Origin: Schaedlerella sp.
Lineage (GTDB): Bacteria > Bacillota > Clostridia > Lachnospirales > Lachnospiraceae
Length of the DNA: 64,000 nt
NCBI GenBank assembly: GCA_052272205.1
Contig: DAVZKO010000001.1
Span: 33,262 to 97,261 of the forward strand
Reading direction: 5' to 3'
A model generated the notes under the pieces. That model was not told the DNA's origin. It did not search any database and saw only the letters and a list, made by a program, of their open reading frames with translations. The translations under genes and the position numbers were made by a program. Of the stretch, positions 8,150 to 50,049 are shown one piece after another; within the stretch, counting starts at the first letter, position 1, and every line of letters begins with the position of its first letter.

Positions 8150-8212
8150 GAAGTGAATACGATGTAACTGTTCAATACAGATACGATACGACATGAAGGA
8201 GGAGCAGCAACA

Positions 8213-9580
8213 ATGAGAGATGTAGACGACATTTTATTTAACAATACTCCTGCGATTCAGCAATTGGCATGTAAGTGTGAGGAGAATAACGCAATCGATA
8301 GAGACTTATATGAGAAGTATGAAGTCAAACGTGGATTACGTGATTTGAATGGTAAGGGTGTCTTAGCGGGATTGACAAACATATCCGATGTTTGTGCAAA
8401 GAAAATCGTGGATGGAGAAGAAGTGCCGTGTGCAGGTAATCTCTACTATCGAGGATACAATATCAAAGATCTGGTAAAAGGATTTTTGGATGCAAAGCAT
8501 CCTGGATTTGAGGAAACAGCTTACTTACTCCTCTTTGGAGAGCTGCCGAACAAGCAGGAACTGAAAGATTTTCAGCAGATGTTGGCACAGAGAAGAATGT
8601 TGCCTCCAAACTTTGTACGTGATGTTATCATGAAGGCTCCAAGCCGGGATATGATGAATAATATTTCACGTTGTATTTTACAGTTATATTCCTATGATGC
8701 AAAAGCGGATGATACAGATATTCCGAATGTTCTGCGTCAGTGTTTGAACTTAATTGCACAATTTCCAATGTTGATGGTATATGGTTATCATGCATATAAC
8801 TATCGCAGAGGGCAGGATTTATATATTTATGCACCGGATCCATCTTTGTCTACAGCAGAGAATATTCTGATGATGCTTCGAGAAGACCGCAAGTATACAG
8901 AGTTGGAGGCTGAGATTCTGGATATGGCACTGGTTCTGCACATGGATCATGGCGGTGGTAACAACTCTACATTTACAACTCATGTAGTTACTTCTTCAGG
9001 AACAGATACATATTCCACAATCTCCGCTGCGATGGCTTCCTTAAAAGGACCGAAGCATGGTGGTGCGAATATTAAAGTAACTCAGATGTTTGAAGATATG
9101 AAGTACAATGTAAAAGACTGGACGGATGATGATCAGGTTAGAGTTTATCTGGAAGCATTATTGAATAAAGAAGCGTTTGACCGCAAAGGTTTGATCTATG
9201 GAATGGGACATGCTATTTATTCTGTATCAGACCCGCGTGCGGAGATATTCAAAAAGTTCGTAAAGCGTCTTGCAATTGAGAAAGGCTGCGAGAAAGAATA
9301 TGCGTTGTATGAAAAGGTAGAGCATATGGCACCGGAAGTAATTGCGGGAAAACGCAAGATGTACAAGGGTGTTAATGCCAATGTCGATTTTTATAGTGGA
9401 TTGGTATATAGTATGTTGGACCTTCCACCGGCATTGTACACACCGATTTTTGCGGCAGCACGTATTGTTGGATGGAGTGCACATCGTCTTGAAGAGCTGA
9501 AGAATGTAGATAAGATTATTCGACCGGCATACAGACCGCTTGCACCGTATCGAGATTATATTAAATTAGATGACAGGTAG
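8213..9580 (+). CDS. citrate synthase (citrate/2-methylcitrate synthase family)
   Basis: 455 aa. GMGHAIYSVSDPRA matches the citrate synthase G-x-GH-x-x-Y-x-x-x-DPR signature. LHMDHGGGNNSTF is also present. RBS is GGAGG. Confidence 0.9.
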   Translation: MRDVDDILFNNTPAIQQLACKCEENNAIDRDLYEKYEVKRGLRDLNGKGVLAGLTNISDVCAKKIVDGEEVPCAGNLYYRGYNIKDLVKGFLDAKHPGFEETAYLLLFGELPNKQELKDFQQMLAQRRMLPPNFVRDVIMKAPSRDMMNNISRCILQLYSYDAKADDTDIPNVLRQCLNLIAQFPMLMVYGYHAYNYRRGQDLYIYAPDPSLSTAENILMMLREDRKYTELEAEILDMALVLHMDHGGGNNSTFTTHVVTSSGTDTYSTISAAMASLKGPKHGGANIKVTQMFEDMKYNVKDWTDDDQVRVYLEALLNKEAFDRKGLIYGMGHAIYSVSDPRAEIFKKFVKRLAIEKGCEKEYALYEKVEHMAPEVIAGKRKMYKGVNANVDFYSGLVYSMLDLPPALYTPIFAAARIVGWSAHRLEELKNVDKIIRPAYRPLAPYRDYIKLDDR

Positions 9581-9588
9581 AGATTAAC

Positions 9589-10515
9589 ATGAAAGATGAA
9601 TTTTACTTTCCATCAAAAGATGGCAATACTGAAATCCACACAATTGAATGGAAACCGGAAGGTGAAGTAAAAGCTGTGCTGCAGATTTGTCATGGCATGA
9701 TAGAGTATGTAGATCGTTATGATGAGTTTGCCAGTTTCTTAAGTGAACAGGGTATTTATGTAGTTGGCAATGACCATCTTGGACATGGAAAGTCTGTTCA
9801 GAGTAAGTCGGAGTATGGCTATTTTCAAAAAGAATATGGCAATGCATGTCTGCTTGCGGATATGCATATGCTCCGGACAAGAACAGCAAAGAAATATCCG
9901 GAAGTACCATACTTTATGTTGGGACATAGTATGGGGTCTATTCTCCTGCGCCAATATATTCAGATGTATGGGAATGGTCTCGCAGGTGCGATTTTGATTG
10001 GGGTAGTTGCAGAACAACCGGTTCCATTGTTGAATTTTGGTAAAGTATTATGCAAAAGTCTTGCGGTAGTAAAAGGCGACCATTACAGAAGCAAGTTGGT
10101 CGAAGACATGGTAATCGGAACATTTAATAAGAAATTCAAAAATCCAAAGACAAGAGCAGACTGGGTTACCAGTGATGAAGAAAAATTGCAGGAGTATGTC
10201 AATGATCCACTTTGTTCATTCCATTTCACTGTGAATGCATATGGTAACATGCTAGATGGTATGAAACGGATGGAGAAGAAAGAGAATGTCTTTATGATTC
10301 CAAAACATCTCCCGATTCTGATGGCAGCAGGTGTAGAAGATCCTGCCGGAAAATGTGGAAAAGGCGTTCGGAAAGTCTATGAGAAATATAAGGCATCAGG
10401 AATTAAAGATGTTACATTGCAATTGTATGCAGGAGACCGGCATGAATTGTTGAATGAGACAGACAGAGCTCAGGTTTATCTGGATATTCAGTCCTGGATG
10501 GAAAACAGAATGTAG
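9589..10515 (+). CDS. alpha/beta hydrolase (lysophospholipase / monoacylglycerol lipase-like)
   Basis: HGMIEYVDRYDEFA...GNDHLGHGKS followed by the nucleophile elbow GHSMGS; 308 aa. Confidence 0.8.
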   Translation: MKDEFYFPSKDGNTEIHTIEWKPEGEVKAVLQICHGMIEYVDRYDEFASFLSEQGIYVVGNDHLGHGKSVQSKSEYGYFQKEYGNACLLADMHMLRTRTAKKYPEVPYFMLGHSMGSILLRQYIQMYGNGLAGAILIGVVAEQPVPLLNFGKVLCKSLAVVKGDHYRSKLVEDMVIGTFNKKFKNPKTRADWVTSDEEKLQEYVNDPLCSFHFTVNAYGNMLDGMKRMEKKENVFMIPKHLPILMAAGVEDPAGKCGKGVRKVYEKYKASGIKDVTLQLYAGDRHELLNETDRAQVYLDIQSWMENRM

Positions 10516-10530
10516 AAATAGAAACAGCGA

Positions 10531-10570
10531 AAACCCGTTAACCTTACGGCTAACGGGTTTCGTTGTTTTT
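10531..10570. terminator. bidirectional intrinsic terminator (also the first element of repeat copy A)
   Basis: AAACCCGTTA (10531-10540) pairs with TAACGGGTTT (10551-10560). It is flanked by an A-run upstream and CGTTGTTTTT downstream. Confidence 0.75.
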
Positions 10571-10727
10571 ATAGTTATCTAAAGGAATGAGAGTAAAGTG
10601 TACATCGGGAAGTTACGCCCGATGTCTACTTTATGAGGGGGGAGATAGTTGTCTTATCAACTATCTGAGATTATTATATCCAGAAAATGTGTCTAAAATA
10701 TGTTGAATCTATAAAAGAAATCGAAAA
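10531..10727 (-). ncRNA. candidate structured small RNA, copy A (strand tentative)
   Basis: Two hairpins (10594-10633 and 10643-10666) flank a G-run, which reads CUCCCCCCUC on the minus strand. A terminator with a U-run lies at the minus-strand 3' end. The inner stem covaries with copy B. Confidence 0.3.
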
Positions 10728-10813
10728 TTTATAAACAAGTTCGAAACTAAATATTAAGAAAACTGTGATTGACAGAATAACAATAAATAGTAAATAGAAA
10801 ATAACAACAAAAC

Positions 10814-11016
10814 AAAAACCCGTCAGCCGGATTCGCTAACGGGGTTTCTGTTTCTTATTTAACTAAAAGGAATGAGAGTAAAGTGCGATATCTTGGATTT
10901 TCCAAGATATCTTAACTTTATGAGGGGGGAGATAGTTGCTGTATCAACTATCTGACGTTAGTATATCGAGAAAATGTGTCTAAAATATGTTAAATATCTA
11001 AAAGAAATCGAAAAAA
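10814..11016 (-). ncRNA. candidate structured small RNA, copy B (strand tentative)
   Basis: Same architecture as copy A, with hairpins at 10879-10920 and 10930-10953. The minus-strand terminator is followed by TTTTTGTTTTGTTGTT. Confidence 0.3.
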
Positions 11017-11154
11017 TCTTATGAAAGTATGAAATCCACAAGAATTGCAGAAAAGTACGCGATAAATGGAAACATTAATAAAATCCTAAGATTTCCCCTA
11101 ATCCTTTTTAATTTTTGTATTCTATCATGTATACTGTAAAGGAGGTGATGAACA

Positions 11155-11850
11155 ATGTACAACATCGTAGTATGTGATGACGATAAAGAAATCGTAGAAG
11201 CAATAGATATATATTTGACTCAGGAAGGGTACCATGTCCTGAAAGCATATGACGGAGAACAGGCATTGAAGCTGTTGGAGACGGAGGACGTACATTTGCT
11301 GATATTGGATGTGATGATGCCAAGACTGGATGGAATTCATGCAACATTAAAGATCAGAGAGAAACACAGTATTCCGATTATTATTTTGTCTGCAAAATCA
11401 GAAGATGTAGATAAGATTCTGGGATTGAATGTGGGAGCAGATGATTATGTGACGAAACCATTTAATCCGTTGGAGCTGATTGCGCGAGTAAAATCACAGA
11501 TTCGCCGCTATACACAGTTCGGTGGAACTGCGAAAGAGGAGAAGGATACCATCTACGAGACCGGAGGTCTTCAGATGAATGATGATCTGAAGCAGGTTAC
11601 GGTCGATGGCGAACTTGTGAAGTTGACACCGATTGAGTACAACATTTTAAAATTACTAATGAAAAATCAAGGTAGAGTATTTTCAATCAATCAGATTTAT
11701 GAATCTATCTGGAATGAAGAAGCAATTGGCGCGGACAATACTGTGGCGGTACATATTCGTCATATCCGAGAGAAAATTGAAATCAACCCGAGAGATCCAC
11801 GTTATTTGAAAGTCGTGTGGGGAGTCGGGTACAAAGTGGAGAAACTGTAA
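11155..11850 (+). CDS. OmpR-family two-component response regulator
   Basis: Receiver motifs VVCDDD, LILDVMMP and TKPF. C-terminal winged helix ends in LKVVWGVGYK. RBS is AAAGGAGG. Confidence 0.9.
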   Translation: MYNIVVCDDDKEIVEAIDIYLTQEGYHVLKAYDGEQALKLLETEDVHLLILDVMMPRLDGIHATLKIREKHSIPIIILSAKSEDVDKILGLNVGADDYVTKPFNPLELIARVKSQIRRYTQFGGTAKEEKDTIYETGGLQMNDDLKQVTVDGELVKLTPIEYNILKLLMKNQGRVFSINQIYESIWNEEAIGADNTVAVHIRHIREKIEINPRDPRYLKVVWGVGYKVEKL

Positions 11851-11909: not shown

Positions 11910-14576
11910 ATGAAGAAATGGTATAGAATGCCGATTACAAAGGCGCTACTGGTTATCGTAGCAATTATCACGGCGATGGTAACCGGAGTCAGTGCAGTCA
12001 TTCTGTTCGGAATGAGGGGAGACCTGTATGGTACGAATCTGCAACAGGAGAAAAAATATGAAGATTCAGAATCTTTTGAATCGACGATGTATCAGACTGC
12101 ATCTTATATCGCAGACCAGATTCGTATACGAAATGAATTTGAGTTGGATGGAACGTATGACCCGGAGAAAATCGTAGATATCATGGAATATGCAAAAAAT
12201 GGAACCATTTCTGGAAAGAATGATTCTGGGATTGCGTATAAGTTAGGGAATTTGGTTGAATGGGCCAAGGTAGGACAATCGGGAAATACAGACGAGCAAG
12301 GTAATATTATTGTGTGCAAGAAGAAAGATGGCACATATTATTATTACTATTATGATGAGTTCAGAAATCTGATTGATGATGGAAAGCTTCAGATTATCGT
12401 GAATGGAGCTCAGCTTCGTTCAGATGAAACCGCAGAGAACACAAGCCAGCTTCAGGAGTTTTATGACAATCTTGATTATAATGCTGCGTATGGAGAAGGA
12501 TTAAGTAATTTTTATGACAGTCTTCGGATAGAAAATACAGAGAATGATTCTGTTTATACAGACTGTTGGATATATGCCGATAATACAAGTTATACAGACT
12601 ATGGGGCACAAGAAGTTGCGGCACCGATTGGAGCAAAAAATCTACTCGCTTTAATAAATGAAAATGAAGATTTGAACGGAAAATTAACAGAGATATGCAG
12701 TAGTCTGGGTAGTACGCTGGATGATATCAGCTATGATGCAGAGCAGTATGACGAATATAAGCAGGGAGCAGATGAATGGGCAGAAGGGAATACAAACTTT
12801 GCATATTTGTTGGTGGATCAGCAGACAAAACAAGTGTATACCAACAATAGTGCATGGACGAAATATGCAGATGTTGAGAAGAACATAGATGCAATAAAAT
12901 CAGCGGAGCACAGCAAATATGTTGTAGTAGAACCGAAACTTTCAGACTTTGAATCCAATCTGAAAGATGTTAATGCGAAAAAGTGGCAGCAGATATTTCA
13001 TACTTTGAATAGCAAGGATAAATCTTCTGAACGGTACATTTTTGCAGCAAAAGTGGATACTACCTACCCGATTCAGGATGTATTTTACACATATAATCAG
13101 AGCTACCAGAAATATGCACCATATGCGAGAAGCGCGATCGTGCTTACGATTCTTGGCAGCATCGTATGTCTGGTTGTGTTATTCTGGCTGACTTGGGTTG
13201 CGGGAAGAAATACAGAAGATGATGCACTGCATCTTACAGCATATGATCATTGGAAGACGGAACTGGGAGCGGCCGTTGTAATTGTTCCGTGGTTATTCTT
13301 CACGGGAATGATAAGCGCATCGTGGAATGGATTCGGCTATCAGGCTATGGATGTGGACAGTTCATATTATCAGCATTTTTATGTATTCTCTATCTCCAAA
13401 GGAGATATGCTGATCTGGGCGGTCTATATGGGAGTCAGCATGGCATTGTTCCTTATCGGATATCTCAGTCTGGTGCGAAGAATCAAAGGAAAGAATTTCT
13501 GGAAAAACAGTATTCTCTACATCGTTTTAAAATGGTGTGTAAAAGTGTTGAAAGGATTCTGTAGATTCTGCAGAACGTTCTGGAAAAATCGAAGTATTAC
13601 CTGGCGTGCAGTGTCACTGTTCATCATTTTTGTATTGATTCATTGGCTTGGATTGACATCGGGAGCCGGATTGTTCATTCTTATCATGTTTGGAGCGGAA
13701 ATTGCAGGGCTATATTATATTGTGCAAAATGCAATCGCAAAGGATAAAGTTCGCAAAGGAATCCAACAAATTGCATCCGGTGATCTGGAATATCAGATTC
13801 CAACAGAGCATCTGAAAGGGGAATACAAACAGACCGCGGAGATGGTCAATGACATTGGAAATGGGCTGAATCGTGCGGTCGATGAAAAAATCAAGAGTGA
13901 ACGACTTAAAACAGATTTGATCACCAATGTGTCCCATGATATTAAAACACCGCTTACTTCTATTATCAATTATGTGGATTTGTTGAAGCGGGAGGAGATT
14001 GATAATCCGAAAATCCAGGGATATCTCGAGGTGCTGGATGCGAAGTCACAACGATTGAAAACACTGACGGAGGATGTAGTTGAGGCTTCCAAAGTCAGCA
14101 GTGGAAATATCAATCTGCAAATGATGGATGTCAACTTTGTGGAAATGTTGAACCAGACAATCGGTGAGACGGAGGAGAAGATGGCTGCAAATAATCTGGA
14201 GGTCATTGCGACAGTTCCGGAGAAACCGGTGATCGTACATGTGGACGGACGCAGAATGTGGAGAGTACTGGAAAATATTTTCAACAATGCGGCAAAATAC
14301 GCGATGCCGGGAACCCGTGTTTATGCAGATCTGCAGACCAAAGAAGGCAATCTGGAGTTTACATTAAAAAATATTTCGGCACAGAAACTGAATATCAAAG
14401 CGGAAGAGTTGACAGAGCGATTCATTCGCGGAGATATTTCGAGAAGTACGGAAGGAAGCGGACTTGGTCTTTCGATTGCAAGTACGTTGACAGAGATGCA
14501 GGGTGGAAACTTTGAGCTATATCTGGATGGAGATTTGTTTAAAGTAACAATTACGCTGCCTCTTGCAGAAAAATAA
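11910..14576 (+). CDS. sensor histidine kinase with a large extracytoplasmic domain and a multi-TM core
   Basis: H-box NVSHDIKTPLTSI, N-box NIFNNAAKYA and G-box GSGLGLSIA. There is a ~370-aa segment between TM1 and TM2, followed by about four more hydrophobic helices. Confidence 0.9.
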   Translation: MKKWYRMPITKALLVIVAIITAMVTGVSAVILFGMRGDLYGTNLQQEKKYEDSESFESTMYQTASYIADQIRIRNEFELDGTYDPEKIVDIMEYAKNGTISGKNDSGIAYKLGNLVEWAKVGQSGNTDEQGNIIVCKKKDGTYYYYYYDEFRNLIDDGKLQIIVNGAQLRSDETAENTSQLQEFYDNLDYNAAYGEGLSNFYDSLRIENTENDSVYTDCWIYADNTSYTDYGAQEVAAPIGAKNLLALINENEDLNGKLTEICSSLGSTLDDISYDAEQYDEYKQGADEWAEGNTNFAYLLVDQQTKQVYTNNSAWTKYADVEKNIDAIKSAEHSKYVVVEPKLSDFESNLKDVNAKKWQQIFHTLNSKDKSSERYIFAAKVDTTYPIQDVFYTYNQSYQKYAPYARSAIVLTILGSIVCLVVLFWLTWVAGRNTEDDALHLTAYDHWKTELGAAVVIVPWLFFTGMISASWNGFGYQAMDVDSSYYQHFYVFSISKGDMLIWAVYMGVSMALFLIGYLSLVRRIKGKNFWKNSILYIVLKWCVKVLKGFCRFCRTFWKNRSITWRAVSLFIIFVLIHWLGLTSGAGLFILIMFGAEIAGLYYIVQNAIAKDKVRKGIQQIASGDLEYQIPTEHLKGEYKQTAEMVNDIGNGLNRAVDEKIKSERLKTDLITNVSHDIKTPLTSIINYVDLLKREEIDNPKIQGYLEVLDAKSQRLKTLTEDVVEASKVSSGNINLQMMDVNFVEMLNQTIGETEEKMAANNLEVIATVPEKPVIVHVDGRRMWRVLENIFNNAAKYAMPGTRVYADLQTKEGNLEFTLKNISAQKLNIKAEELTERFIRGDISRSTEGSGLGLSIASTLTEMQGGNFELYLDGDLFKVTITLPLAEK

Positions 14577-22210: not shown

Positions 22211-22276
22211 GCATACTTTCGCTGCCTCTTACATAGATTAAAAAGAGTTATGAATCGTGTAATGTAGGGGGCAGCA

Positions 22277-23284
22277 ATGAGAGAAAGTGAATTAGAGGTT
22301 TTAGAACAATATCCGATTGAGGTAGAAAGCACCCGCAAGATAAGGGGTGCGTTTTTTATCAACACAAAAGAGGGAACGATGCTGTTAAAAGAGACAACAA
22401 TCTCAGACAGACGTGCCCTCTTATTTTATACGCTGTTGTGTCAGCTTGAGTCGAATGGAAAGTATGTGGATACGCCGATATTGAATTCGGATAATAAGTT
22501 GATAAGTACGTCAAGAGATGGTAGTAAATATCTGTTAAAGAAATGGTATGACGGAAAAGAGTGTGAAGTCCGGCGGGAGATGGATGTACTTGCAGCGGTA
22601 GAAAATCTGGCACGTCTGCATCATGAAATGGAATGGAAAGAGCTCTGCAGTGTGGAGGAAAAACAAGTGATACGTCCTCCGGTGGGGAGACATTTGAAAG
22701 AAGAAATGTTGTGCCATAACCGCGAGTTGAAAAAGGTGCGTTCCTTTGTGCGCGCCCGTGTAAATAAAGGTCCGTTCGAATATTTGTATTTACAGTCTTT
22801 TGAGCAAATGTACCGGCTTGGGAAAGCGGTGGAAGAGAAGTTGGAGACTTCCACATATGACACACTGTATCAGGAAAGCATAGAAAAAGGCAGACTGATA
22901 CACGGAGATTACAATTATCATAATGTCCTTTTACTTCCGCAAAAGGTTGTTACGACAAACTTTGAACATTTCCGAATCGATGTACAGGTGTTGGATTTGT
23001 ATTATTTTCTGCGAAAGGTAATGGAAAAACATCATTGGAGTGTGATACTCGGAAATTCGATTTTGAGCCGCTATAGTAGAATCCGGACGCTGAGTTCAGA
23101 AGAACTGGAGTATCTTGCGCTTAAAATTGCTTACCCGGAGAAATTCTGGAAAACTGCAAATTCGTATTATCATTCGAATAAAGCATGGATACCGGAAAAA
23201 AGTGTCGAGAAGCTCCGGTTGGCAGTGTCACAAAACGAGGAAAAATTACGGTTTTTGGAGACGATATTCTCTTTTCATTTATAG
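22277..23284 (+). CDS. CotS-family spore coat protein / aminoglycoside-phosphotransferase-like kinase fold
   Basis: 335 aa. The kinase-like catalytic loop IHGDYNYHNVLL is typical of the CotS/YutH family. Confidence 0.7.
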   Translation: MRESELEVLEQYPIEVESTRKIRGAFFINTKEGTMLLKETTISDRRALLFYTLLCQLESNGKYVDTPILNSDNKLISTSRDGSKYLLKKWYDGKECEVRREMDVLAAVENLARLHHEMEWKELCSVEEKQVIRPPVGRHLKEEMLCHNRELKKVRSFVRARVNKGPFEYLYLQSFEQMYRLGKAVEEKLETSTYDTLYQESIEKGRLIHGDYNYHNVLLLPQKVVTTNFEHFRIDVQVLDLYYFLRKVMEKHHWSVILGNSILSRYSRIRTLSSEELEYLALKIAYPEKFWKTANSYYHSNKAWIPEKSVEKLRLAVSQNEEKLRFLETIFSFHL

Positions 23285-24294: not shown

Positions 24295-24579
24295 ATGGAA
24301 GAAAGACAGATTGCAAAGGCACATAAACTGGTTATCAACAATCGAAAGACAAGTACAGTGACCGGTGTGCTGGATGTATTATCGTTTGATCTAAATGAGG
24401 TCGTGCTGGAGACCGAGCAGGGAATGCTGTTGGTCAAAGGGACGGATTTGCATGTCAATCGTCTGAGTGTGGAAAAAGGTGAAGTAGATTTGGCAGGAAA
24501 TATTGACAGCGTCATTTATTCGGATACCAATCAGACCGGGCGGCAGAATGAAAATTTGTTCACAAAGCTGTTTAAATAG
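24295..24579 (+). CDS. yabP: sporulation protein YabP
   Basis: 94 aa. VTGVLDVLSFDLNEVVLETEQGMLLVKGTDLHVNRL is typical of YabP, and the synteny is yabO-yabP-yabQ-divIC. Confidence 0.85.
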   Translation: MEERQIAKAHKLVINNRKTSTVTGVLDVLSFDLNEVVLETEQGMLLVKGTDLHVNRLSVEKGEVDLAGNIDSVIYSDTNQTGRQNENLFTKLFK

Positions 24580-24588
24580 GGTTCGCCT

Positions 24589-24888
24589 ATGATGCTTGGA
24601 ATCGGAATAGAAACTGCGATTTTTTTCTATGCATGGCTGTCAGGATGCATTATATTTATTTTTTATCAAGTATTAGTTCAGATACGGAAATTGGTAAAAC
24701 ATTCTATTACAATGGTAAATGTAGAAGATTTTTTCTTCTGGATCGGTGTTGGGATTTATCTGTTTCGACAAATGTATCGAACTACATATGGTACAATACG
24801 ATGGTTTTTTGTACTCGGAGTGATACTTGGAAGTGTCAGTGCCTGGTTGATAAAGCGTGTATTTAACAATTTGTTAAAGAATATGTAA
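24589..24888 (+). CDS. yabQ: spore cortex biosynthesis membrane protein YabQ
   Basis: 99-aa protein with three hydrophobic helices, immediately after yabP. Confidence 0.7.
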   Translation: MMLGIGIETAIFFYAWLSGCIIFIFYQVLVQIRKLVKHSITMVNVEDFFFWIGVGIYLFRQMYRTTYGTIRWFFVLGVILGSVSAWLIKRVFNNLLKNM

Positions 24889-25032
24889 AAATTACTTGAA
24901 AATGAGTGTAAAACCATATATCATGAATATATTGAGCAGTAGTGCGTATTGAGATATTGTTTATATAATCATGAGTGGTAACGATATTGTTACAGAGACG
25001 CAGGCAATTCACAAAGTTAGGTGAGTACAGAT

Positions 25033-25368
25033 ATGAATAGAAGACAAACAGCGGAAGCGGATAAGCAGAAGCGAAGGAAGAAAAGAGCTGTCCGTCCTCA
25101 TAAGAGAAGTATTCAGATAATTTGTGTGGGATTAGCAGTGCTGACTGTGGTATTTGGTGTAAACTCCATTTCAATTTACTCGAAGAACCAGAACTATAAG
25201 CAGCAAGAGGCTGAGCTGGAAGCACAGATTAAGCAAGAGAAAGAGCGGGCAAGAGAAGTCGAAGCGTATCAGGAATATGTGAAGACGGATGATTACATAA
25301 AAGAAGCTGCAGAAGAAAAATTAGGCTTAGTGGATCCAAACGAGGTTCTGTTTAAGCAGGCAAATTAG
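25033..25368 (+). CDS. divIC: septum formation initiator (DivIC/FtsB family)
   Basis: Basic N-terminus, one TM (IICVGLAVLTVVFGV) and a coiled coil ending in EEKLGLVDPNEVLF. ATG at 25033 follows AGGTGA. The tracked GTG at 25021 is less likely. Confidence 0.8.
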   Translation: MNRRQTAEADKQKRRKKRAVRPHKRSIQIICVGLAVLTVVFGVNSISIYSKNQNYKQQEAELEAQIKQEKERAREVEAYQEYVKTDDYIKEAAEEKLGLVDPNEVLFKQAN

Positions 25369-25393
25369 ATAATATGAGGAAACACGATAAGAT

Positions 25394-25424
25394 AAACTCC
25401 GGAGAGAAATCCGGAGTTTTTTTC
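25394..25424 (+). terminator. intrinsic terminator after divIC
   Basis: AAACTCCGG / CCGGAGTTT stem, 8-nt loop, then TTTTTTT. Confidence 0.85.
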
Positions 25425-25469
25425 AATTTATAGGACAAGATTGGAGGGGTTACTGTGGAGGAAGGACAG

Positions 25470-26852
25470 ATGCTTCATACAAGTCCATATGTGGCACAGA
25501 TTGAAAAGTTTGCGGATTCTTTGACGCAACTGGCAAATATATTTCTGCGGATGGAAAATAAGAAAAAAACATTTACCAACGATGAGATTGATGCGATGTT
25601 TATTCGGGTGAAAGAACACGTATGTGCAAAATGTGAAAAGAGAGACTGGTGTTGGGGAGAAAATTATGTTCATACATGTCAGATGGGATATGAGATCTTA
25701 TCAGCGGTAGATAATTACGGAGATGAGATGAATGTGGAGACAAAGCGGAAACTAAAGCAGTGTTGTCTTCGTGCTCCGCGGTTTTTACGGGAAATGTTAG
25801 AGGCATTTCAGGAGGCACGCCAGAATATGATGTGGATAAATCGGATGGCCCAGAGCCGAGAGGGATGCGCGATTCAAATGGATACATTTGCCGAGATGAT
25901 CCGACAGTCGGCGAAGGAGATGGAGGATAGCATTTTCCATGATGAGAGAATGGAAAAGAGAATTATCGAGGCGTTGAAACGGAAAGGTGTACGCGTGTTG
26001 AACACCAACTTTTTCATGAATTCAGAAGGAAAATATGAATTGCATGTAACTGCAAGAGCAATGTATGAGCAGTGTTTTACTGTGCGTGAGATTGTGAAAG
26101 AGATATCCGTGGCATCCGGAAGACAACTTGCACCTGCCAAAGAACAGGCACAGATACTCGGACGGGAATATATTACCATTGTATGTATGGAAGGTCCGGA
26201 ATATTATACCCTTCAGGGAGTTGCGAAGGTTGGAAAGGGGAGCAGTGAAATCTCCGGAGACAACTTTATGATGATGGATTTGCCGGGCGGAAAACAAGGC
26301 ATCGCGCTGTCGGACGGAATGGGCTTCGGTGAGCGGGCATGCAGGGAGAGTACGTTGGTTATCGAGCTTTTGGAGGAGCTTTTGGAAGCAGGATTTCCGG
26401 AAAAGATGGCGATTCAGATGATCAATACGACACTTGTGATGGGACGGGAAGAAATCCATTATTCCACAGTGGATATGAGTATTTTTGATTTGTACAGTGG
26501 TGTATGCGAAATCTTAAAAGCCGGAGCATCGTCTACATTTATTAAGAAAAAAGATGGAATTGAACATTTACGCTCGACCAGTCTGCCAATCGGGGTGGTT
26601 CATAAGATTGATGTGGATTATGCGAAACGCCAATTGGAGGATGGCGATTTCGTGATTATGATCACAGATGGGATTATGGATGCATTGCCGGTCGGGGAAC
26701 AGGATGTATTGTTAGAGACGATCATTAATGGTACTGCGATTGTCAATCCAAAAGAATTGGCACAGCACATTTTAAAACAGGTGTTAAACTGGACAGGCAG
26801 GCCGCCGGAAGACGATATGACTGTACTTGTCATTGGAATCTGGAAATATTGA
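25470..26852 (+). CDS. spoIIE: SpoIIE-like PP2C protein phosphatase lacking the N-terminal polytopic membrane domain
   Basis: It sits in the conserved spoIIE position (divIC ... tilS-hpt-ftsH). PP2C core SGDNFMMMDLPGGKQGIALSDGMGFGERA ... VIMITDGIMD ... DDMTVLVI. No hydrophobic helices. ATG at 25470 follows GGAGGAAGG. Confidence 0.75.
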   Translation: MLHTSPYVAQIEKFADSLTQLANIFLRMENKKKTFTNDEIDAMFIRVKEHVCAKCEKRDWCWGENYVHTCQMGYEILSAVDNYGDEMNVETKRKLKQCCLRAPRFLREMLEAFQEARQNMMWINRMAQSREGCAIQMDTFAEMIRQSAKEMEDSIFHDERMEKRIIEALKRKGVRVLNTNFFMNSEGKYELHVTARAMYEQCFTVREIVKEISVASGRQLAPAKEQAQILGREYITIVCMEGPEYYTLQGVAKVGKGSSEISGDNFMMMDLPGGKQGIALSDGMGFGERACRESTLVIELLEELLEAGFPEKMAIQMINTTLVMGREEIHYSTVDMSIFDLYSGVCEILKAGASSTFIKKKDGIEHLRSTSLPIGVVHKIDVDYAKRQLEDGDFVIMITDGIMDALPVGEQDVLLETIINGTAIVNPKELAQHILKQVLNWTGRPPEDDMTVLVIGIWKY

Positions 26853-40453: not shown

Positions 40454-43400
40454 ATGAAACACAAAAGAAGAATAAGTTGGATATTGAGCGTATGTATGTT
40501 GATACTAACTGTTATGACCAGTGGAATAGATGTCTGCGCAGTTGATTTTGATCAAGAATCAGTCCAAGCAACTGAGGATAGTAGTTTGGAAAAAACGGAA
40601 AACGAGGCAACAAAAGAAACAGAAGATATTACTGATGAATTTACAAATTCAGGAGAACCCAACACAGAAGAGTTTGAAGTACGAGAAGACGAAACGATAA
40701 CAAGTATGGATGAAGAAGGTAATGTTTCGGAAGCACCGGATGAGTCGGGACTGCTTGAGATTGATTTATTGAGTAATGATGGAAAGATAGTTAACTTTAA
40801 TACAAAAGGAGCAGTGGTAACAACATACACCGAAGTTGGAACCGGTAACGCCGGGTATACTTGTGGGGCATATGGTGCTGATGCAGCATATCTTGGGACA
40901 GAAAATGGAAAAGTGAAATTTTTGTTATCAGGAGTGACAGGGCTTGTTGATGCAAAAGATGTGCAGGTTGTAAGTGTGGACAGTGCAGCATCTGTTAGTT
41001 ATTATTCTGTTAGTTCAGGACGATTAATACATAATATTACAACAAATATTACACAGGGAAATTATATCACATCATTAGATAACGGACCGGCACCATCGTA
41101 TTTGTCAGAAGGTGTACAATATTATAGTTATGACGGACATTATTTCTATACAAGAGACAGATTTTCAAATATGTTGGATGATTATAAGGCAGGAGTAAGA
41201 ACAAATTCGATTAACAGTTCTTCGCCATATTATAATTATTATCAATATCTTCCTTTGCGAAGCAAAACAGTATATTCAGCAGCTCAATTAAATGAAATTA
41301 TAAATAGCAAAGCAGCCGGATATAAAATGAGTAATACAGGAGATTTGTTTACAAATTATCAAAATACATACGGAGTAAATGCATTAATCGCAGTTGGAAT
41401 TGCAGCAAATGAAAGTGCGTGGGGAAAGAGCAGCATTGCACAGGAAAAAAACAATCTGTTTGGCTTAAATGCTGTGGACGCAGCTCCGGGACAGAGTGCA
41501 AACGCATATGAAAATATTGATGCATGTATTAAAACATTTACAGAGACATATATGTCAAAGAGATATCTAAACCCTAAAAACTGGGTATATTCAGGCGGAT
41601 ATCTTGGTAATAAGGGAAGTGGAATGAATGTAAGATATGCATCAGATCCATATTGGGGAGAAAAGAATGCGAATGTTGCTTGGATGATTGATAAAACGTG
41701 TGGAAATAAAGACAGTAATCGTTATACCATAGGGATAAAAGATGTGATAGGAAATGAACATACAGAGTTAAACGTACGGACAGAGGCAAGTGTTTCATCT
41801 ACTGTAATTCACACAACAAAGGATTATTCAAATCAGGCATTTATTGTTTTAGATTCAAGCCAAGGAAATTTTTATAAGGTACAAAGTGATGCCGCGTTAA
41901 CAGCAAATCGTACCGCTGTTTCGGATGCAGGAAATTATGATTTTTCCAATATGTATGCATATGTTAGTTCAGGGTACGTCAAGAATGTCTTAACAGGTTC
42001 CGGAAATTCAGGTGGCTCAGGAGAATCAGGTGGAAATGAAAATAAACCGGATAATTCCTTAGGTAGTGGAGCAATAGCGGTACCAACGGAACTGGCAGGA
42101 GCAATAGAATACAATGCTCATGTCCGTGACCTCGGTTGGATGGATACAAAGCAAAACGGACAGATGATGGGAACTGTAGGAAAAAATCTTCCGATGGAGG
42201 CAATAACAATTAACATACAAGGTATTGCAGACTTAGGGATTGAATATCAAGTACATGCACAAGATATTGGTTGGATGAAAAGTGTATCTAATGGAGATTT
42301 AGGTGGAACTGTCGGACAGGCAAAAAAATTAGAGGCAATTAAATTTAAATTAACGGGTAATGCTGCATCAAATTATGATTTATATTATAGAGCGCATGTG
42401 ACGAATATTGGCTGGATGGATTGGGCTAAAAATGGAGAATTAGCTGGAACACAAGGATATAATTATGCATTACAGGCGGTTCAGATTGCATTATTGCCAA
42501 AAGGATCAGCAGCACCAGGTGGAACAGAGACACCATATCAGATTAATACAGTCAAAATTGGATATTCTGCACATGTACAGGATGTTGGATGGCAAAACGA
42601 AGTTCTGGGAAGCAAGATTGCAGGAACAACTGGTCAGAATAAAAAAATAGAAGCAATGATTTTGAATGTCAAATCTGATTTGTTAGGAGTGAAATATCGT
42701 TCATATTTGCAGGATACTGGCTGGCAAAATTATCATAAGGATGGTGAAATTGCAGGAACAACAGGGCAGAACCGTCGTATGGAAGCAATTGAAATAGAGC
42801 TTACAGGAAAACAGAAAGATAATTATGATATATATTATCGCGTGCATGTACAAGATTTAGGGTGGCTTGGTTGGGCAAAAAATGGAGAGACAGCCGGAAC
42901 AATGAACTATGCTCTTAAAGTGGAAGCAATTCAGATGTTAATTGTGCCAAAGGGAACGCCAACAATAGAAAATGAACAGAGTTCGTTTAAAAAGAAAAGT
43001 ACAAATATAGAATATAGCACGCATGTGCAAGATATTGGATGGCAAGATGCAGTACAAAATGGAGAGCTGGCAGGTACAACCGGTCAAAATAAACAGGTAG
43101 AAGCAATAAGGATAAATTTGCAATATCCAGAATATTCGGGCGAAATCAAGTATAAAAGTCATATTCAAGATATCGGCTGGCAAAATTACGTGTCAAATGG
43201 TGCTATAAGTGGAACTGTAGGCAGAAATAAAGAAATGGAAGCAATCTGTATTGAGCTTACAGGAGAAATGGCTGAAAAATATGATGTGTATTATCAAGTG
43301 CATGCTAGTGAATTTGGTTGGCTTGGCTGGGCAAAGAATGGAGAAAAAGCAGGAAGTGAAGGATATGCGCGTCAGGTAGAGGCAATTCGTATTCAATTAG

Positions 43401-46592: not shown

Positions 46593-49217
46593 ATGAAGAA
46601 AAATATAAAAAGTGTGGGAGTACTTCTACTTAGTTCTATTATGTTGATGTCAAGTCCATTAACAGTGCTTGCAGAGGAAAACGAAACTGTACAAACACAA
46701 GAAAATGGTTCTATTGATCAGCCTGAAAATAATGGAGAAAGTGAGTCACAGGCTTCTGAAAATAGTAGTGAAGACAATACAATTAAAGAGGAAAGACAAC
46801 AGGAAATATTAGAGCAGGAGGAGGGGCAAGAAAATATAGCATCAACAACTGTTCAGGATATACAGGAAGAACCGGAGGCTGTTGCAGAAAATGGCGAGCA
46901 GATCCAGTTAAAATATCGTGCATATTTACACGGTGGATTCTGGCAGGAAGAAAAACAAAATGGAGAAATGGCTGGAACGACAGGGCAGAATCGTGCAATG
47001 AGAGCACTGCAGATAAAAATAGACAATCAAACAAATGTGACAGGTGGGGTTGAGTACAGTGCACATGTGCAAAATATTGGCTGGCAGGACGCTGTAAAAG
47101 ATGGAGAAACAGCGGGTATTGAAGAAAAAAATCTTCCGATAGAAGCAATTAGAATGAATCTTACAGGGGATTTAAAAGAACAGTATGATATCTATTATCG
47201 TGTTCATGCTACAAATGTTGGCTGGCTTGGCTGGGCGAAGAATGGTGAAGATGCCGGAACTGCTGGATACGCATATGCTGTACAGGCAATTGAAATTAAA
47301 TTATATAATAAAAATGCAGAGGATAAACCAGTACAGACAGAACGCAGCTTTTTGTCAGAAGAGACACGTGGTTTGTTGATGTATAAGACCCATGTGCAAA
47401 ACATTGGTTGGCAAGATAAAGTTTATGATGGAGAAACAGCAGGAACAACAGGAAGAAACCTGAATTTGGAAGCACTTCAGTTAAAAGTGACAGATGCCGG
47501 AAGAAAAAATATGTCGGGCTCTATTAGTTACGAAGCCCATGTACAGGATATTGGATGGCAGAATGCAGTTTCTGATTGGGGTACAGCAGGAACAACAGGA
47601 AGAAATAAGAAAATAGAAGCGTTAAAAATAAGCCTGACAGGAGAGTTGGCACAAGCATATGATATTTATTATCGTGTTCATTCAGCAGAGTATGGCTGGT
47701 TAGGCTGGGCAAAAAATGGTGAACAGGCAGGCACTATAGGACTTAACCTGGGAGCACAGGCTATTGAAGTAAAATTATATGCAAAAGGTGCAACAGATAA
47801 ACCAGAACAAAGTGGCAGAAGTTATATTTCACAAGATAATTTAGGGGCAATTCTTTATAAAGCCCATGTACAGAATATTGGCTGGCAATCAAATGTGTAT
47901 GATGGAAAAACGGCCGGAACGACAGGAAGAAATTTGAGTGTAGAAGCTCTGAACATTAAAGTTACTGATTGGGGAAGACAAAATGGGCTGAATGGGTCTG
48001 TTATTTATCAAACACACGTACAGGATATTGGCTGGCAGGATGAAGTTGCGGATGGAGAGACTTCCGGAACAACAGGGAAAAATAAAAAAGTTGAGGCCAT
48101 AAAAGTTCGTTTGTCAGGTGAACTGGAAGAAAAATATGATATCTATTATCGTGTTCATAGTGCAAGATTTGGCTGGCTTGGCTGGACGAAAAATGGAGAG
48201 ACAGCTGGAACTGTCGGTTACAATGCGGGAGTAGAGGCTATTGAAATCAAACTTTATGAAAAAAATGATACAAACGTACCTGATACAACAGCAAGAAGCT
48301 ATCTGGCAACAGAAAATATAGGCGAAATTAATTTTACGGCAAATGTTGAAAATTCTGGCTGGCAGACGACAAAAACAAATGGGCAGATTGCAGGAACAAC
48401 AGGAGAAAATAAAGCAATTCAGCAGCTGACGATGAGTACATCTGATTCTACGGGCAAAAATGTATTTAATGGAACAATTGAATATCGCTTGCATGTAAGT
48501 AATGTTGGCTGGATGGATTGGAAAAATAATGGAGAAATAGCTGGAGACGGAAAAAATCAGGCAGAAGCGGTTCAAATTCGTTTAACGGGTGAGTTGGCAC
48601 AATATGCAGATATCTATTACCGCACTCATGTGTCAAATTATGGATGGCTTGGCTGGGCAAAGAATGGTCAGGAAGCCGGAACTACAAAACTTGGAAACAA
48701 ATTGCAGGCTATTCAAGTGAAAATTGTCCCAAAGGGAGCAGCAGCACCGGGAAGTAATAGTAATTATTATATAACGATGACACCACAACAGATGCGTATT
48801 AATAATGGAATCCAAAATGTATATAATCAGGTGGGACGGAATTTGTATAGTTGTTTTATGTGGTGCGTTAATAATATCAAATATCGTACGCTTGGAGATA
48901 ACCCAGGAACTGGTTATACAAATCCACAGTGGTTTGCACTGTACGGATTAGAGCAGCAAATAGGAGATTGTCGTACTTATGCAGCAACTTTTTATCAGTT
49001 AGCAAAGGGACTGGGCTATAATGCAAGATATGTATATGGTTATGTTCCAAGAGCCGGAGGTGGAATGGTTGATCATGCATGGGTAGAAATTGATATCAAT
49101 GGAGTAACCTATGTATATGATACAGATTTTCAATATGAGACGGGTCGTAATGGATATCAGTTCAGATACAGGACTTCCGGTACATGGGTATATACAAATT
49201 ATCACTATGAAAGTTAA
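46593..49217 (+). CDS. secreted protein with 12 ChW repeats and a C-terminal transglutaminase-like cysteine protease domain
   Basis: Signal peptide, an acidic linker and 12 ChW units. The C-terminus GDCRTYAATFYQLAKGLGYNARYVYGYV...DHAWVEIDINGVTYVYDTD shows the Cys-His-Asp transglutaminase-core pattern. Confidence 0.85.
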   Translation: MKKNIKSVGVLLLSSIMLMSSPLTVLAEENETVQTQENGSIDQPENNGESESQASENSSEDNTIKEERQQEILEQEEGQENIASTTVQDIQEEPEAVAENGEQIQLKYRAYLHGGFWQEEKQNGEMAGTTGQNRAMRALQIKIDNQTNVTGGVEYSAHVQNIGWQDAVKDGETAGIEEKNLPIEAIRMNLTGDLKEQYDIYYRVHATNVGWLGWAKNGEDAGTAGYAYAVQAIEIKLYNKNAEDKPVQTERSFLSEETRGLLMYKTHVQNIGWQDKVYDGETAGTTGRNLNLEALQLKVTDAGRKNMSGSISYEAHVQDIGWQNAVSDWGTAGTTGRNKKIEALKISLTGELAQAYDIYYRVHSAEYGWLGWAKNGEQAGTIGLNLGAQAIEVKLYAKGATDKPEQSGRSYISQDNLGAILYKAHVQNIGWQSNVYDGKTAGTTGRNLSVEALNIKVTDWGRQNGLNGSVIYQTHVQDIGWQDEVADGETSGTTGKNKKVEAIKVRLSGELEEKYDIYYRVHSARFGWLGWTKNGETAGTVGYNAGVEAIEIKLYEKNDTNVPDTTARSYLATENIGEINFTANVENSGWQTTKTNGQIAGTTGENKAIQQLTMSTSDSTGKNVFNGTIEYRLHVSNVGWMDWKNNGEIAGDGKNQAEAVQIRLTGELAQYADIYYRTHVSNYGWLGWAKNGQEAGTTKLGNKLQAIQVKIVPKGAAAPGSNSNYYITMTPQQMRINNGIQNVYNQVGRNLYSCFMWCVNNIKYRTLGDNPGTGYTNPQWFALYGLEQQIGDCRTYAATFYQLAKGLGYNARYVYGYVPRAGGGMVDHAWVEIDINGVTYVYDTDFQYETGRNGYQFRYRTSGTWVYTNYHYES
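46905..48737 (+). repeat. coding tandem repeats: 12 ChW units organised as 4 triplets (~470-nt period)
   Basis: The recurrent DNA block TATTATCGTGTTCAT...GGCTGGCTTGGCTGGGC appears near 47195, 47665, 48140 and 48610. Every third unit carries the GWLGWAKNGE variant. Confidence 0.85.
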
Positions 49218-49248: not shown

Positions 49249-50049
49249 ATGAAACGTAAAGTATTAACAATATTTTTAGTAGGAATGTTAGCAATTACAG
49301 CAGTTACAGGATGTGGAAATAAAAATACAACAGATACGAAAAAAGAGACAACTGCTACAACAAAAACAGAAAAAGAAGAATACAAAACAATAGGAGAAGA
49401 GGATAAAGATGCTTATAAAGTAACTCTTAAAAATGAAACAGGTCAGGATATTGTTTCTGTTAGTGTAAAATCTTCTTCAGAGGAAAATTATCCAGATAGT
49501 TTTTTGAAAGAGGCAGATACTTACAAGAAAGACGAGACAAGAGTTTTGTATTATAAACCATCAGAAGATGCTGCTAAGGAAACTGCGACAGAAAGTGGAA
49601 AAGTATTGCCGGTAGAATATACTATACAATTAACATTGGCAGATAAGACAATTGTTGAATTGCATGCATTTCCATTTGATGATATGGAAAAAGGAAAAAT
49701 TAAAATTCAGGATGGTGTGGCTTATCTGACATATGAGAAAGACGGAGCAGAGGTTAGTACATTGGATGCTGAATTGGCTACAAAAGCTCAAAAAGAGCAA
49801 GATGAAAAAGCAAAAGCGGAAGCAGAAGCTGCAGCACAGGCACAGGCAGAGGCCGCAGCACAGGCTCAGGCAGAAGCCGCAGCACAGGCAGAGGCTGCTG
49901 CAGCTCAGGCACAAACGAATCAATCAACATATACAGAATCATCAGATTGGGGTTCACAAAACTATACAGAACCGGCACCAGCGCCAGCACCATCAGCAGG
50001 CACATCATCTTCTGATGATGGCTGCATCGGAGATGGATTGACATATTAA
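49249..50049 (+). CDS. lipoprotein with a C-terminal Ala/Gln/Glu low-complexity repeat
   Basis: Lipobox LAITAVTGC, and a C-terminal AEAEAAAQAQAEAAAQAQAEAAAQAEAAAAQAQ tract. Confidence 0.7.
   Translation: MKRKVLTIFLVGMLAITAVTGCGNKNTTDTKKETTATTKTEKEEYKTIGEEDKDAYKVTLKNETGQDIVSVSVKSSSEENYPDSFLKEADTYKKDETRVLYYKPSEDAAKETATESGKVLPVEYTIQLTLADKTIVELHAFPFDDMEKGKIKIQDGVAYLTYEKDGAEVSTLDAELATKAQKEQDEKAKAEAEAAAQAQAEAAAQAQAEAAAQAEAAAAQAQTNQSTYTESSDWGSQNYTEPAPAPAPSAGTSSSDDGCIGDGLTY
49815..49913 (+). repeat. short in-frame tandem repeat (GCAGCACAGGC(A/T)CAGGCAGA(G/A)GCC-type)
   Basis: Directly visible reiteration that encodes (A-Q-A-E-A-A)n. Confidence 0.8.

Follow-up and report, generated by a model that had tools for sequence, protein, structure and literature searches.

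A probable multicopy small RNA family of gut Lachnospiraceae, represented by two tandem genes beside a two-component system

What occupies the 640 nucleotides (nt) that separate an alpha/beta-hydrolase gene from the gene of an OmpR-family response regulator in Schaedlerella sp.? The gap lies in a 64,000-nt stretch of this bacterium (GenBank assembly GCA_052272205.1, contig DAVZKO010000001.1, positions 33,262 to 97,261 of the forward strand; hereafter the window, to whose own numbering all coordinates refer unless a locus label precedes them). An original prediction, made from the sequence, placed two copies of one structured intergenic module there and proposed a duplicated small RNA (sRNA). 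Both modules are very probably complete minus-strand genes for a structured noncoding RNA. On the sequence evidence, they belong to a multicopy sRNA family that extends across gut Lachnospiraceae and is not described in Rfam 15 or in the literature that we searched.

Two copies of one module

The gap holds two copies of one module, as the original prediction had it, with all of the listed blocks in the places it gave them (parts of both copies are listed in Table 1). Aligned over the whole module, copies A and B are 81% identical; AAAGGAATGAGAGTAAAGTG, ACTTTATGAGGGGGGAGATAGTTG, TATCAACTATCTGA, GAAAATGTGTCTAAAATATGTT, and AAAAGAAATCGAAAA are the same in both, the identical stretches common to the two being 14 to 24 nt long, and the second half (the last 100 nt) reaches 90% identity at a distance of 287 nt. 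The window has exactly two occurrences of the 20-mer TATGAGGGGGGAGATAGTTG, and shuffled sequence is expected to have none even when three mismatches are allowed. The inner stems of one hairpin are indeed exchanged with pairing kept: copy A has ACATCGGG/CCCGATGT at 10602 to 10625, and copy B has GATATCTTGG/CCAAGATATC at 10887 to 10911. Both of the GC-rich hairpins proposed as terminators score as terminator-like on the minus strand, and the gap region contains five such sites, with 0.6 expected. Minus-strand folds have z-scores of -8.1 (copy A) and -6.8 (copy B), and the plus-strand fold of copy A has a z-score of -6.9. The C-rich segments that had been predicted to be single-stranded, here labeled CRR1 and CRR2, are unpaired in both minimum free energy (MFE) folds; in copy A, the span listed as CRR1 includes the last 3 nt of the 3' arm of hairpin P1 and the 5' arm of the base of hairpin P2, leaving approximately 10634 to 10642 single-stranded. 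The 39-codon open reading frame (ORF) at 10587 to 10706 exists only in copy A, as had been noted.

Read along the minus strand, family members share one order: promoter, -10 box, 6 to 7 nt, P1, CRR1, P2, CRR2, and a long terminator hairpin with a U-tract. CRR1 takes the unpaired form UCUCCCCCCUCAU, CUCCCCCCUCAU, or CCCCCCUCAU, and CRR2, likewise unpaired, the form CUCUCAUUCCUUUAGAUAACUAUAA. P2 combines an invariant base (UAAAGU/ACUUUA) and a small internal loop with a hypervariable, compensating inner stem. A covariance model of the family (R1) matches copy A at 10512 to 10666 with 156 bits (copy A was in the seed alignment) and copy B at 10797 to 10953 with 135 bits.

Distribution of the family

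A gapped pattern built from the two conserved blocks and scanned against one genome per bacterial species recovered at least 119 DNA stretches (labeled L001 and onward), all of them, among the matches listed, from Lachnospiraceae or unclassified Clostridia-type metagenome-assembled genomes. Named carriers are Mediterraneibacter (including [Ruminococcus] torques ATCC 27756 and [R.] faecis), Dorea, Faecalimonas, Faecalicatena, Sellimonas, Coprococcus comes, Extibacter muris, Schaedlerella, Bariatricus, Claveliimonas, Drancourtella, Hespellia, Sporofaciens, Aequitasia, and Suipraeoptans. In [R.] torques ATCC 27756, the unit is located at ~86.3 kb of NZ_DS264382.1 (L140:6343-6498, minus strand); the E. 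muris strain is DSM 28560. Applied to the DNA of the sRNA loci, the covariance model finds about 180 copies (more than 160 across Lachnospiraceae) at 45 to 175 bits, including copies that the pattern missed. Multiple copies, from two to four or more and either arranged in tandem or spread over separate loci, are present in several genomes: there are two in the window, three each in L101, L063, L065, and L121, four within 4 kb in Faecalicatena fissicatena (L127), and at least four in Bariatricus massiliensis.

Contigs that encode an identical response regulator keep both copies at ~97% identity. In L001, both the gene upstream and the hairpin of the terminator have been replaced, but the module is intact beginning with the first base past the terminator, which indicates that the unit moves together with the regulator side. 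Between genera with linked kinases of only 45 to 55% identity, some 45 nt hardly vary, among them the sequence of the P1 stem. Within CRR1, CCCCUCAUAAAG is invariant among 142 aligned copies, part of it having been fixed by the search pattern; TTCCTTTAGATAACTATAA/UUCCUUUAGAUAACUAUAA of CRR2 and much of the terminator sequence are conserved without having been forced by that pattern, the former across genera. The C-run of CRR1 in copy B (10922 to 10927) comprises six, seven, or eight C residues in near-identical strains (L002 to L004 and L011) and five to eight across the family, which could be either a real polymorphism in seed length or a homopolymer assembly error.

Structure, strand, and coding potential

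Alignment of all 142 copies with MAFFT followed by RNAalifold recovered P1 alone, since the lengths of P2 and the terminator differ among copies. The structure was specified by hand on a well-aligned subset of 28 sequences and converted into a covariance model, to which all matches were realigned. Across the 150 model-aligned matches, 94.7% of cells form standard pairs, compared with 80.5% after shuffling and 34 to 46% when the 3' partners are slid by one to three columns. Changes on both sides occur in 39 of the 43 pairs, and the covariation score is 0.320 versus 0.110 for shuffled alignments, none of 500 shuffles scoring as high. P1 is 97 to 99% paired, with one or more double changes at each of its nine pairs; the nine pairs of the inner P2 stem all covary, with four to six pair types each; and the terminator helix is 92% paired. 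The inner P2 stem exists in 116 distinct sequences, all of them hairpin-forming, a pattern visible without any model.

G-U pairs outnumber A-C mismatches 56:15 in the inner part of P2 (P2b) and 171:78 in the terminator, which identifies the minus strand of the window as the RNA strand. The -10 box indicates the same strand, as does the U-tract of copy B, present on the minus strand only. The original proposal of a duplicated structured sRNA on this strand thus stands, as does its view that the module is not coding sequence: offsets between the two conserved blocks fall into the three frames about equally often (53/47/47, modulo 3), the P1 loop ranges from about 3 to 16 nt, plus-strand ATG ORFs run from 4 to 30 codons among the copies, and no ORF is conserved in the family. 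The RNA family is noncoding. The 39-codon ATG ORF and a 15-codon TTG ORF that is in frame in both window copies were considered as candidates and ruled out, since the lengths of the P1 loop and P2 vary freely.

Promoter architecture

The original prediction had found no convincing sigma-A promoter on either strand. This holds for the -35 element, none of which lies at the 17-bp spacing, and fails for the -10 element, a conserved minus-strand copy of which precedes each module. Anchored on this box, 145 family promoters could be compared: 118 have the hexamer TATACT and 23 have TATAAT (141 of 145 together), located 6 to 7 nt before the first base of P1, where AGATAG starts. The consensus reads tTaAgAattTTTC.ttTTCTTTtAta.ttt.aaCATA.TTT.GaCAcATTTt....tTATACTaa, with conservation reaching to about -68/-69 in two blocks, -40 to -19 and -69 to -47. 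The first of these consists of two direct repeats in an 11-bp phase, TTAACAtattt and TAGACAcattt. The consensus has no sigma-A -35 element 16 to 18 bp from the -10 box, a TTGACA-like hexamer lying only 11 bp from it, and by-eye comparison with the consensus elements of sigma-54, SigB, SigD, extracytoplasmic function (ECF), and sporulation sigma factors yielded no fit.

A position weight matrix of -40 to -6 identifies 165 sRNA promoters in ~0.9 Mb of DNA from sRNA loci and only five other sites, one at a divergent sRNA copy and four at a different short unit; with so few other sites scored, the promoter appears to be almost exclusive to this RNA family. In form (TTAACA-N5-TAGACA), the direct repeats match what we take to be the arrangement bound by regulators of the OmpR/PhoB family. 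The PhoP boxes of Bacillus subtilis are TT(A/T/C)ACA-N5 repeats. Given a near-consensus sigma-A -10 box without a -35 element, this is probably an activator-dependent sigma-A promoter that would work via the direct repeats.

A related promoter, TCACA-N6-ATCACATTT-N6/7-TATAGTA, occurs at L024:5286 (-), L082:4921 (+), L114:2984 (-), and L115:4327 (+), where it precedes a different and shorter unit of ~60 to 100 nt ending in a conserved CU-rich UUUUCUUUUUCAUAACUUUUCCUU and a terminator. In L082, this unit lies directly upstream of a GH25-LysM lysozyme gene (as a leader, an attenuator, or a second sRNA), and in L024 and L115 it lies just upstream of a main sRNA copy. The short unit with its related promoter is absent from the window; it may represent a second member of the same regulon.

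Genomic context

Orthologues of the histidine kinase encoded next to the response regulator extend to 45% identity. Of nine distinct orthologous loci compared, six have the module no more than 3 kb upstream of the response regulator gene (kinase identities of 89, 74, 55, 51, 50, and 48%), and three lack it (48, 46, and 45%). At the locus with 55% kinase identity, a single copy carries a third inner stem, GACAUCCCGGGG/CCCCUGGAUGUC (in RNA sense), and both purine-rich plus-strand blocks are 100% identical to those of the window. In a tblastn search over the 119 sRNA loci, a response regulator at least 55% identical to that of the window was found in 21 and the kinase sensor domain in 17.

In 113 of 143 cases, the neighbor on the terminator side is a convergent gene, most commonly a hydrolase of the window type (25 convergent cases), and the promoter-side neighbor is codirectional in 86 of 147. 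The commonest promoter-side neighbors are a same-strand GH25-LysM lysozyme gene whose end lies ~80 nt upstream (26 cases, 23 loci), a gene for a small Spo0A-C-like protein (13 cases, assigned by sequence resemblance, not by Pfam search), and a divergent OmpR-type regulator gene (12 cases). The ancestral order appears to have been citrate synthase, hydrolase, opposite-strand sRNA(s) with the GH25-LysM gene, and a forward pair of response regulator and kinase genes with a methyltransferase gene; the window has no lysozyme gene, so its sRNA promoters abut the regulator gene. The regulator gene itself is preceded by an almost invariant ATATCATGTATACTGTAAGGGAGGTGATGAAAATG (11117 to 11157, and at the same place in 22 related loci), and a -10-like TATACT lies only 5 to 6 nt before its perfect extended Shine-Dalgarno (SD) sequence, GGGAGGUGAU, so that either the leader must be very short or an operator is located here.

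In six Faecalimonas-type loci (L129, L041, L060, L068, L089, and L105), a convergent tyrosine-integrase gene lies ~70 nt past the sRNA terminator, and the terminator sequence of these integrase-linked copies has been replaced. In addition, eight viral or prophage contigs from IMG/VR (L141 to L148) carry the unit, mostly within ~1 kb of the contig end. The 3' end of the sRNA gene is probably a prophage attachment site.

Table 1. Predicted sRNA genes, their parts, and the adjoining genes (window coordinates; TSS, transcription start site)
Feature	Position	Strand	Remarks
Alpha/beta-hydrolase gene	9589..10515	+	Pfam Hydrolase_4; convergent, shares the copy A terminator; not part of the RNA
sRNA gene, copy A	10520..10666	-	Predicted transcript of ~147 nt; 3' end in the U-tract past the terminator
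Copy A intrinsic terminator	10520..10566	-	Terminator-like site 10561-10530; also serves the convergent hydrolase gene
Copy A CRR2	10574..10593	-	CUCUCAUUCCUUUAGAUAAC; single-stranded in fold
Copy A hairpin P2	10594..10633	-	Base UAAAGU/ACUUUA; inner stem ACAUCGGG/CCCGAUGU
Copy A CRR1	10629..10645	-	UCUCCCCCCUCAUAAAG; unpaired in MFE fold
Copy A hairpin P1	10643..10666	-	AGAUAGUUG / CAACUAUCU, 6-nt loop
Copy A TSS (inferred)	10666	-	A of AGAUAG; placed by the conserved -10 box of 145 promoters
Copy A -10 box	10673..10678	-	TATAAT; 6 nt upstream of the A of AGATAG
Copy A direct-repeat boxes	10685..10706	-	TCAACAtatttTAGACAcattt; -40 to -19; candidate activator site
Copy A upstream conserved block	10713..10732	-	ATAAATTTTCGATTTCTTTT; -66 to -47; family consensus TtAAGAAnTTTTCnnTTTCTTTtA
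sRNA gene, copy B	10806..10953	-	Predicted transcript of ~148 nt; inferred TSS 10953
Copy B intrinsic terminator	10806..10856	-	Terminator-like site 10843-10819, then TTTTTGTTTT; long U-tract, minus strand only
Copy B CRR2	10850..10878	-	CUCUCAUUCCUUUUAGUUAAAUAAGAAAC
Copy B hairpin P2	10879..10920	-	Base as in copy A; inner stem GAUAUCUUGG/CCAAGAUAUC
Copy B CRR1	10916..10932	-	UCUCCCCCCUCAUAAAG
Copy B hairpin P1	10930..10953	-	From fold
Copy B -10 box	10960..10965	-	TATACT; 6 nt upstream of the A of AGATAG
Copy B direct-repeat boxes	10972..10993	-	TTAACAtatttTAGACAcattt; -40 to -19
Copy B upstream conserved block	11000..11022	-	-69 to -47
OmpR-family response regulator gene	11155..11850	+	Pfam Response_reg and Trans_reg_C; divergent from the sRNA pair
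Histidine kinase gene	11910..14576	+	888 amino acids; Pfam HisKA and HATPase_c

Proposed mechanism and alternatives

We think it fairly probable that the locus consists of two tandem, independently transcribed minus-strand genes for an sRNA of ~150 nt that silences mRNAs. Each gene would have its own promoter and its own intrinsic terminator, and an activator, likeliest the divergent OmpR-type two-component system, would bind the direct repeats at -40 to -19. The transcript would fold into P1, P2, and the terminator, holding CRR1 and CRR2 single-stranded, and these would pair with the purine-rich initiation regions of mRNAs (the SD sequence and AUG), thereby blocking translation. The presence of several copies would provide dosage or additive control of an envelope- or stress-responsive regulon that would include, in many relatives, the GH25-LysM lysozyme gene. 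The individual parts of this scheme differ in strength. Action by pairing at start regions, argued from analogy with known sRNAs, has in our estimation somewhat better than an even chance of being correct. That the neighboring two-component system drives both sRNA genes is a tentative proposal, short of probable, based on the conserved divergent linkage and the direct-repeat architecture.

Predicted duplex energies of CRR1 and CRR2 at the start regions of 761 neighboring genes track the pairing of those regions with the 16S anti-SD sequence (slopes of 0.54 and 0.41). The best candidate target among 50 window genes, an ORF at 22277 to 23284 with AAUGAGAGAAAGUG at its start, reaches -23.6 kcal/mol (z = -2.6), which is not significant for 50 genes. 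As a separate observation, the start of the citrate synthase gene (8193 to 8222) and that of an ORF of 335 amino acids without a Pfam match (22250 to 22290) share GG(A/G)GG-CAGCA(AC)-AAUGAGAG, which is complementary to parts of CRR1 and CRR2 and is not statistically significant within the window.

Several points weigh against this scheme. Most family copies are not beside this two-component system, and no further copy of the promoter boxes beyond chance was found near the response regulator operon, upstream of it, or elsewhere in the window; the assignment of the regulator therefore relies on synteny and site architecture. The transcription start site and the transcript are predictions, and the pairing counts were made on a model-fitted alignment, which biases them toward the structure of the model. 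No specific target was found among the window genes or the neighboring gene families. The start region of the response regulator gene, tried as a target, showed an enrichment (p of ~1e-5) that is wholly explained by its perfect SD sequence: after correction for SD strength, residual p values are 0.97 and 0.94, and shuffled seeds perform as well in 18 of 100 and 52 of 100 trials. In Dorea and Coprococcus comes, there is a subtype that shares the promoter, P1, CRR1, and P2 and lacks CRR2 entirely (L092:1653-1789, L085:6050-6139, L034:5024-5116, L054:1303-1430, and L104:3694-3821); these sites lie a few hundred nucleotides from a canonical copy. Moreover, the ~45 nearly invariant nucleotides far exceed what an mRNA seed usually needs, and with invariant stretches of this length, the P1 stem included, a conserved partner that is not an mRNA is conceivable.

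A first alternative, which we regard as unlikely, accepts the transcript as described and has it bind a conserved protein or the ribosome, as a sponge, a decoy, or a component of a ribonucleoprotein, with the sequence-invariant P1 and the CUCAU-containing stretches around P2 forming a protein- or rRNA-recognition surface. This would accommodate a conservation above that of normal seeds, the repetition of CUCAU on both sides of P2, the failure of target predictions to single out an mRNA, and a multicopy layout typical of titrating RNAs; repeated CU-rich motifs have been discussed as resembling Rsm/Csr-type RNAs (PMC4132741). The single-stranded parts, however, contain no GGA motifs, which makes CsrA an unlikely partner, and no conserved gene for an RNA-binding protein is linked to the loci. 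Furthermore, unpaired C/U-rich stretches complementary to the SD sequence are a hallmark of base-pairing sRNAs of Firmicutes (PMC4132741, PMC4409812). A related and decidedly less likely possibility is that the RNA is a subunit or ligand of a conserved cellular machine rather than an ordinary mRNA-targeting sRNA. It might mimic the 16S 3' end, CRR2 (UCAUUCCUUUAGA) resembling UCACCUCCUUUCUA of that end, or act as a two-point clamp in which CRR2 (UUCCUUU) would hold the SD sequence and CRR1 (CUCAU) would hold AUGAG, with P2 bridging the spacer. If so, dosage (two to six or more copies behind one activator-dependent promoter) would retune translation initiation globally in Lachnospiraceae under one stress signal.

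It is very improbable that the units are 3' untranslated or terminator modules of an upstream codirectional gene (often the GH25-LysM gene), processed or acting in cis. The codirectional orientation of most promoter-side genes fits such an origin, as does the short distance to GH25-LysM genes that have no obvious terminator of their own. In the window and in 61 other cases, however, the upstream gene is divergent or is another sRNA copy, and there is thus no transcript from which to process the unit. The same -10 and upstream boxes stand at a fixed distance from P1 in every copy, and the full promoter is repeated in each tandem copy.

That the element is a dispersed repeat, the end of a mobile element, or an integration site with incidental hairpins is hardly credible, despite its multicopy, dispersed nature and its association with integrase genes and the ends of viral contigs. 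The original prediction had named a mobile-element end as a reading that would count against it; terminal inverted repeats and target duplications are absent. Three helices are maintained by compensatory changes, the orientation-specific promoter and terminator are always kept, and conservation across genera is far above that of flanking DNA (in L001, the flank is replaced and the unit is identical). Use as an attachment site follows from the conservation of a small RNA gene and is no alternative to its function.

A functional plus strand, acting as a leader or riboswitch of the response regulator operon or encoding a small ORF (39 codons from ATG, or 15 codons from a TTG that stands 4 nt behind GAGGGGGGAG, a sequence resembling a strong SD), can be set aside despite the shared in-frame TAA of both copies and the stable plus-strand fold of copy A, because the module would then open with a terminator and lack a promoter, the G-U pairs of the minus strand would become the disfavored A-C mismatches, neither frame nor ORF length nor P1 loop length is kept, and in most loci no gene follows on the plus strand.

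Significance

Lachnospiraceae are among the most abundant bacteria in the guts of humans and other animals, and the literature that we searched contains no characterized regulatory RNA for these members of the family. The RNA described here is a new family of an already known kind of regulator and a candidate for Rfam; it offers a sharply defined, conserved, multicopy entry into posttranscriptional control in Lachnospiraceae, probably of envelope or stress responses. Because prophages appear to integrate at its genes, the family is also of use as a marker in annotation; cultured type strains carry it, so the predictions are directly testable.

Other features of the window

Two large genes (42137 to 43355 and 46941 to 48681) contain many diverged copies of coding repeats with spacings of ~141 to 477 nt, probably cell wall-binding or similar repeat domains. 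An Ala/Gln/Glu-rich repeat with a 12-nt period lies at 49809 to 49904. Segments at 58672 to 59080 and 60848 to 61250, which are 72 to 74% identical and 2.17 kb apart in adjacent two-domain glycosyltransferase genes, represent a tandem gene duplication (with a Pfam assignment for 57130 to 59307 only).

Comparison with known RNA families

At gathering thresholds, Rfam 15 has no match in the whole window, and relaxed searches (E up to 10 on 10400 to 11250 and up to 5 on eight related loci) return only scattered subthreshold matches, in keeping with the original failure to recognize the module as a known family. The covariance models of LhrC (RF00616) and of ylbH have no match in the window, the gap, or the eight related loci, the latter on either strand and the former at the same limits of E. 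The one near-match in Rfam is RsaE (RF01820), with 18.0 bits (E = 2.8) at 10814 to 10905 on the minus strand and 28.2 bits in L127, relative to a gathering score of 79. Exact-sequence and keyword searches of the literature found no description of the family, the gut structured-RNA catalogue of Fremin and Bhatt not having been compared motif by motif.

Several characterized sRNAs are similar in design. The Qrr sRNAs of Vibrio are near-identical paralogues with an invariant single-stranded core that act additively or redundantly; each has its own activator-dependent promoter under one response regulator, in a Proteobacterial system that depends on sigma-54/LuxO and Hfq. They resemble the new family in placing several paralogues behind one activator-dependent promoter and are unrelated to it in sequence and structure. 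FsrA is a CU-rich sRNA that blocks translation by pairing at initiation regions.

A highly conserved sRNA of spore-forming Firmicutes, CsfG, is the reverse strand of the ylbH motif (PMC3574147, PMC4409812) and has CU-rich stretches in loops and interhelical regions. The window encodes homologues of YabP and SpoIIE (24295 to 26852), and its organism is therefore a spore former, a point that bears on a possible CsfG-like link to sporulation. CsfG, however, is single-copy and transcribed by sigma-F/sigma-G, whereas the -10 box of the new family is sigma-A-like: judged by eye against the descriptions for Clostridioides difficile (PMC3789822), TATACTA lacks the upstream G or CAT of the sporulation consensus and stands ~19 nt from the ACATA box.

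RsaE/RoxS shares with the new family unpaired C-rich regions capable of pairing with SD sequences and a terminator hairpin at the end. RoxS depends on ResDE and has C-rich regions (PMC4409812), and an OmpR-family activator (ResD/SrrA) acts at a conserved upstream site, to be set beside the adjoining OmpR-type gene and the promoter direct repeats seen here. RsaE differs in being single-copy, ~100 nt long, and found in Bacillales, and its motif is CCCCUUUGUUU as opposed to CCCCCCUCAU or CUCUCAUUCC. With its score far below the cutoff, "analogy, not homology" was the right wording in the original prediction, and the resemblance is functional only.

The closest functional analogue, judged by likeness of design, is LhrC of Listeria monocytogenes. 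Sequence and covariance-model similarity are lacking; the new family has the order P1-CRR1-P2-CRR2-terminator with its CU-rich sites between helices and not in loops, its invariant stretches are far longer, and it belongs to Lachnospiraceae. LhrC is nonetheless also multicopy, ~110 to 150 nt long, with several copies in tandem (the new family being partly so), and is G-poor with redundant CU-rich motifs in single-stranded stretches. These motifs bind the G-rich SD region of targets, and the copies depend on LisRK (PMC4132741). All LhrC copies are placed under one OmpR-type envelope-stress system; here, all copies share one promoter architecture, and an OmpR-type system and a cell wall hydrolase gene are recurrent neighbors.

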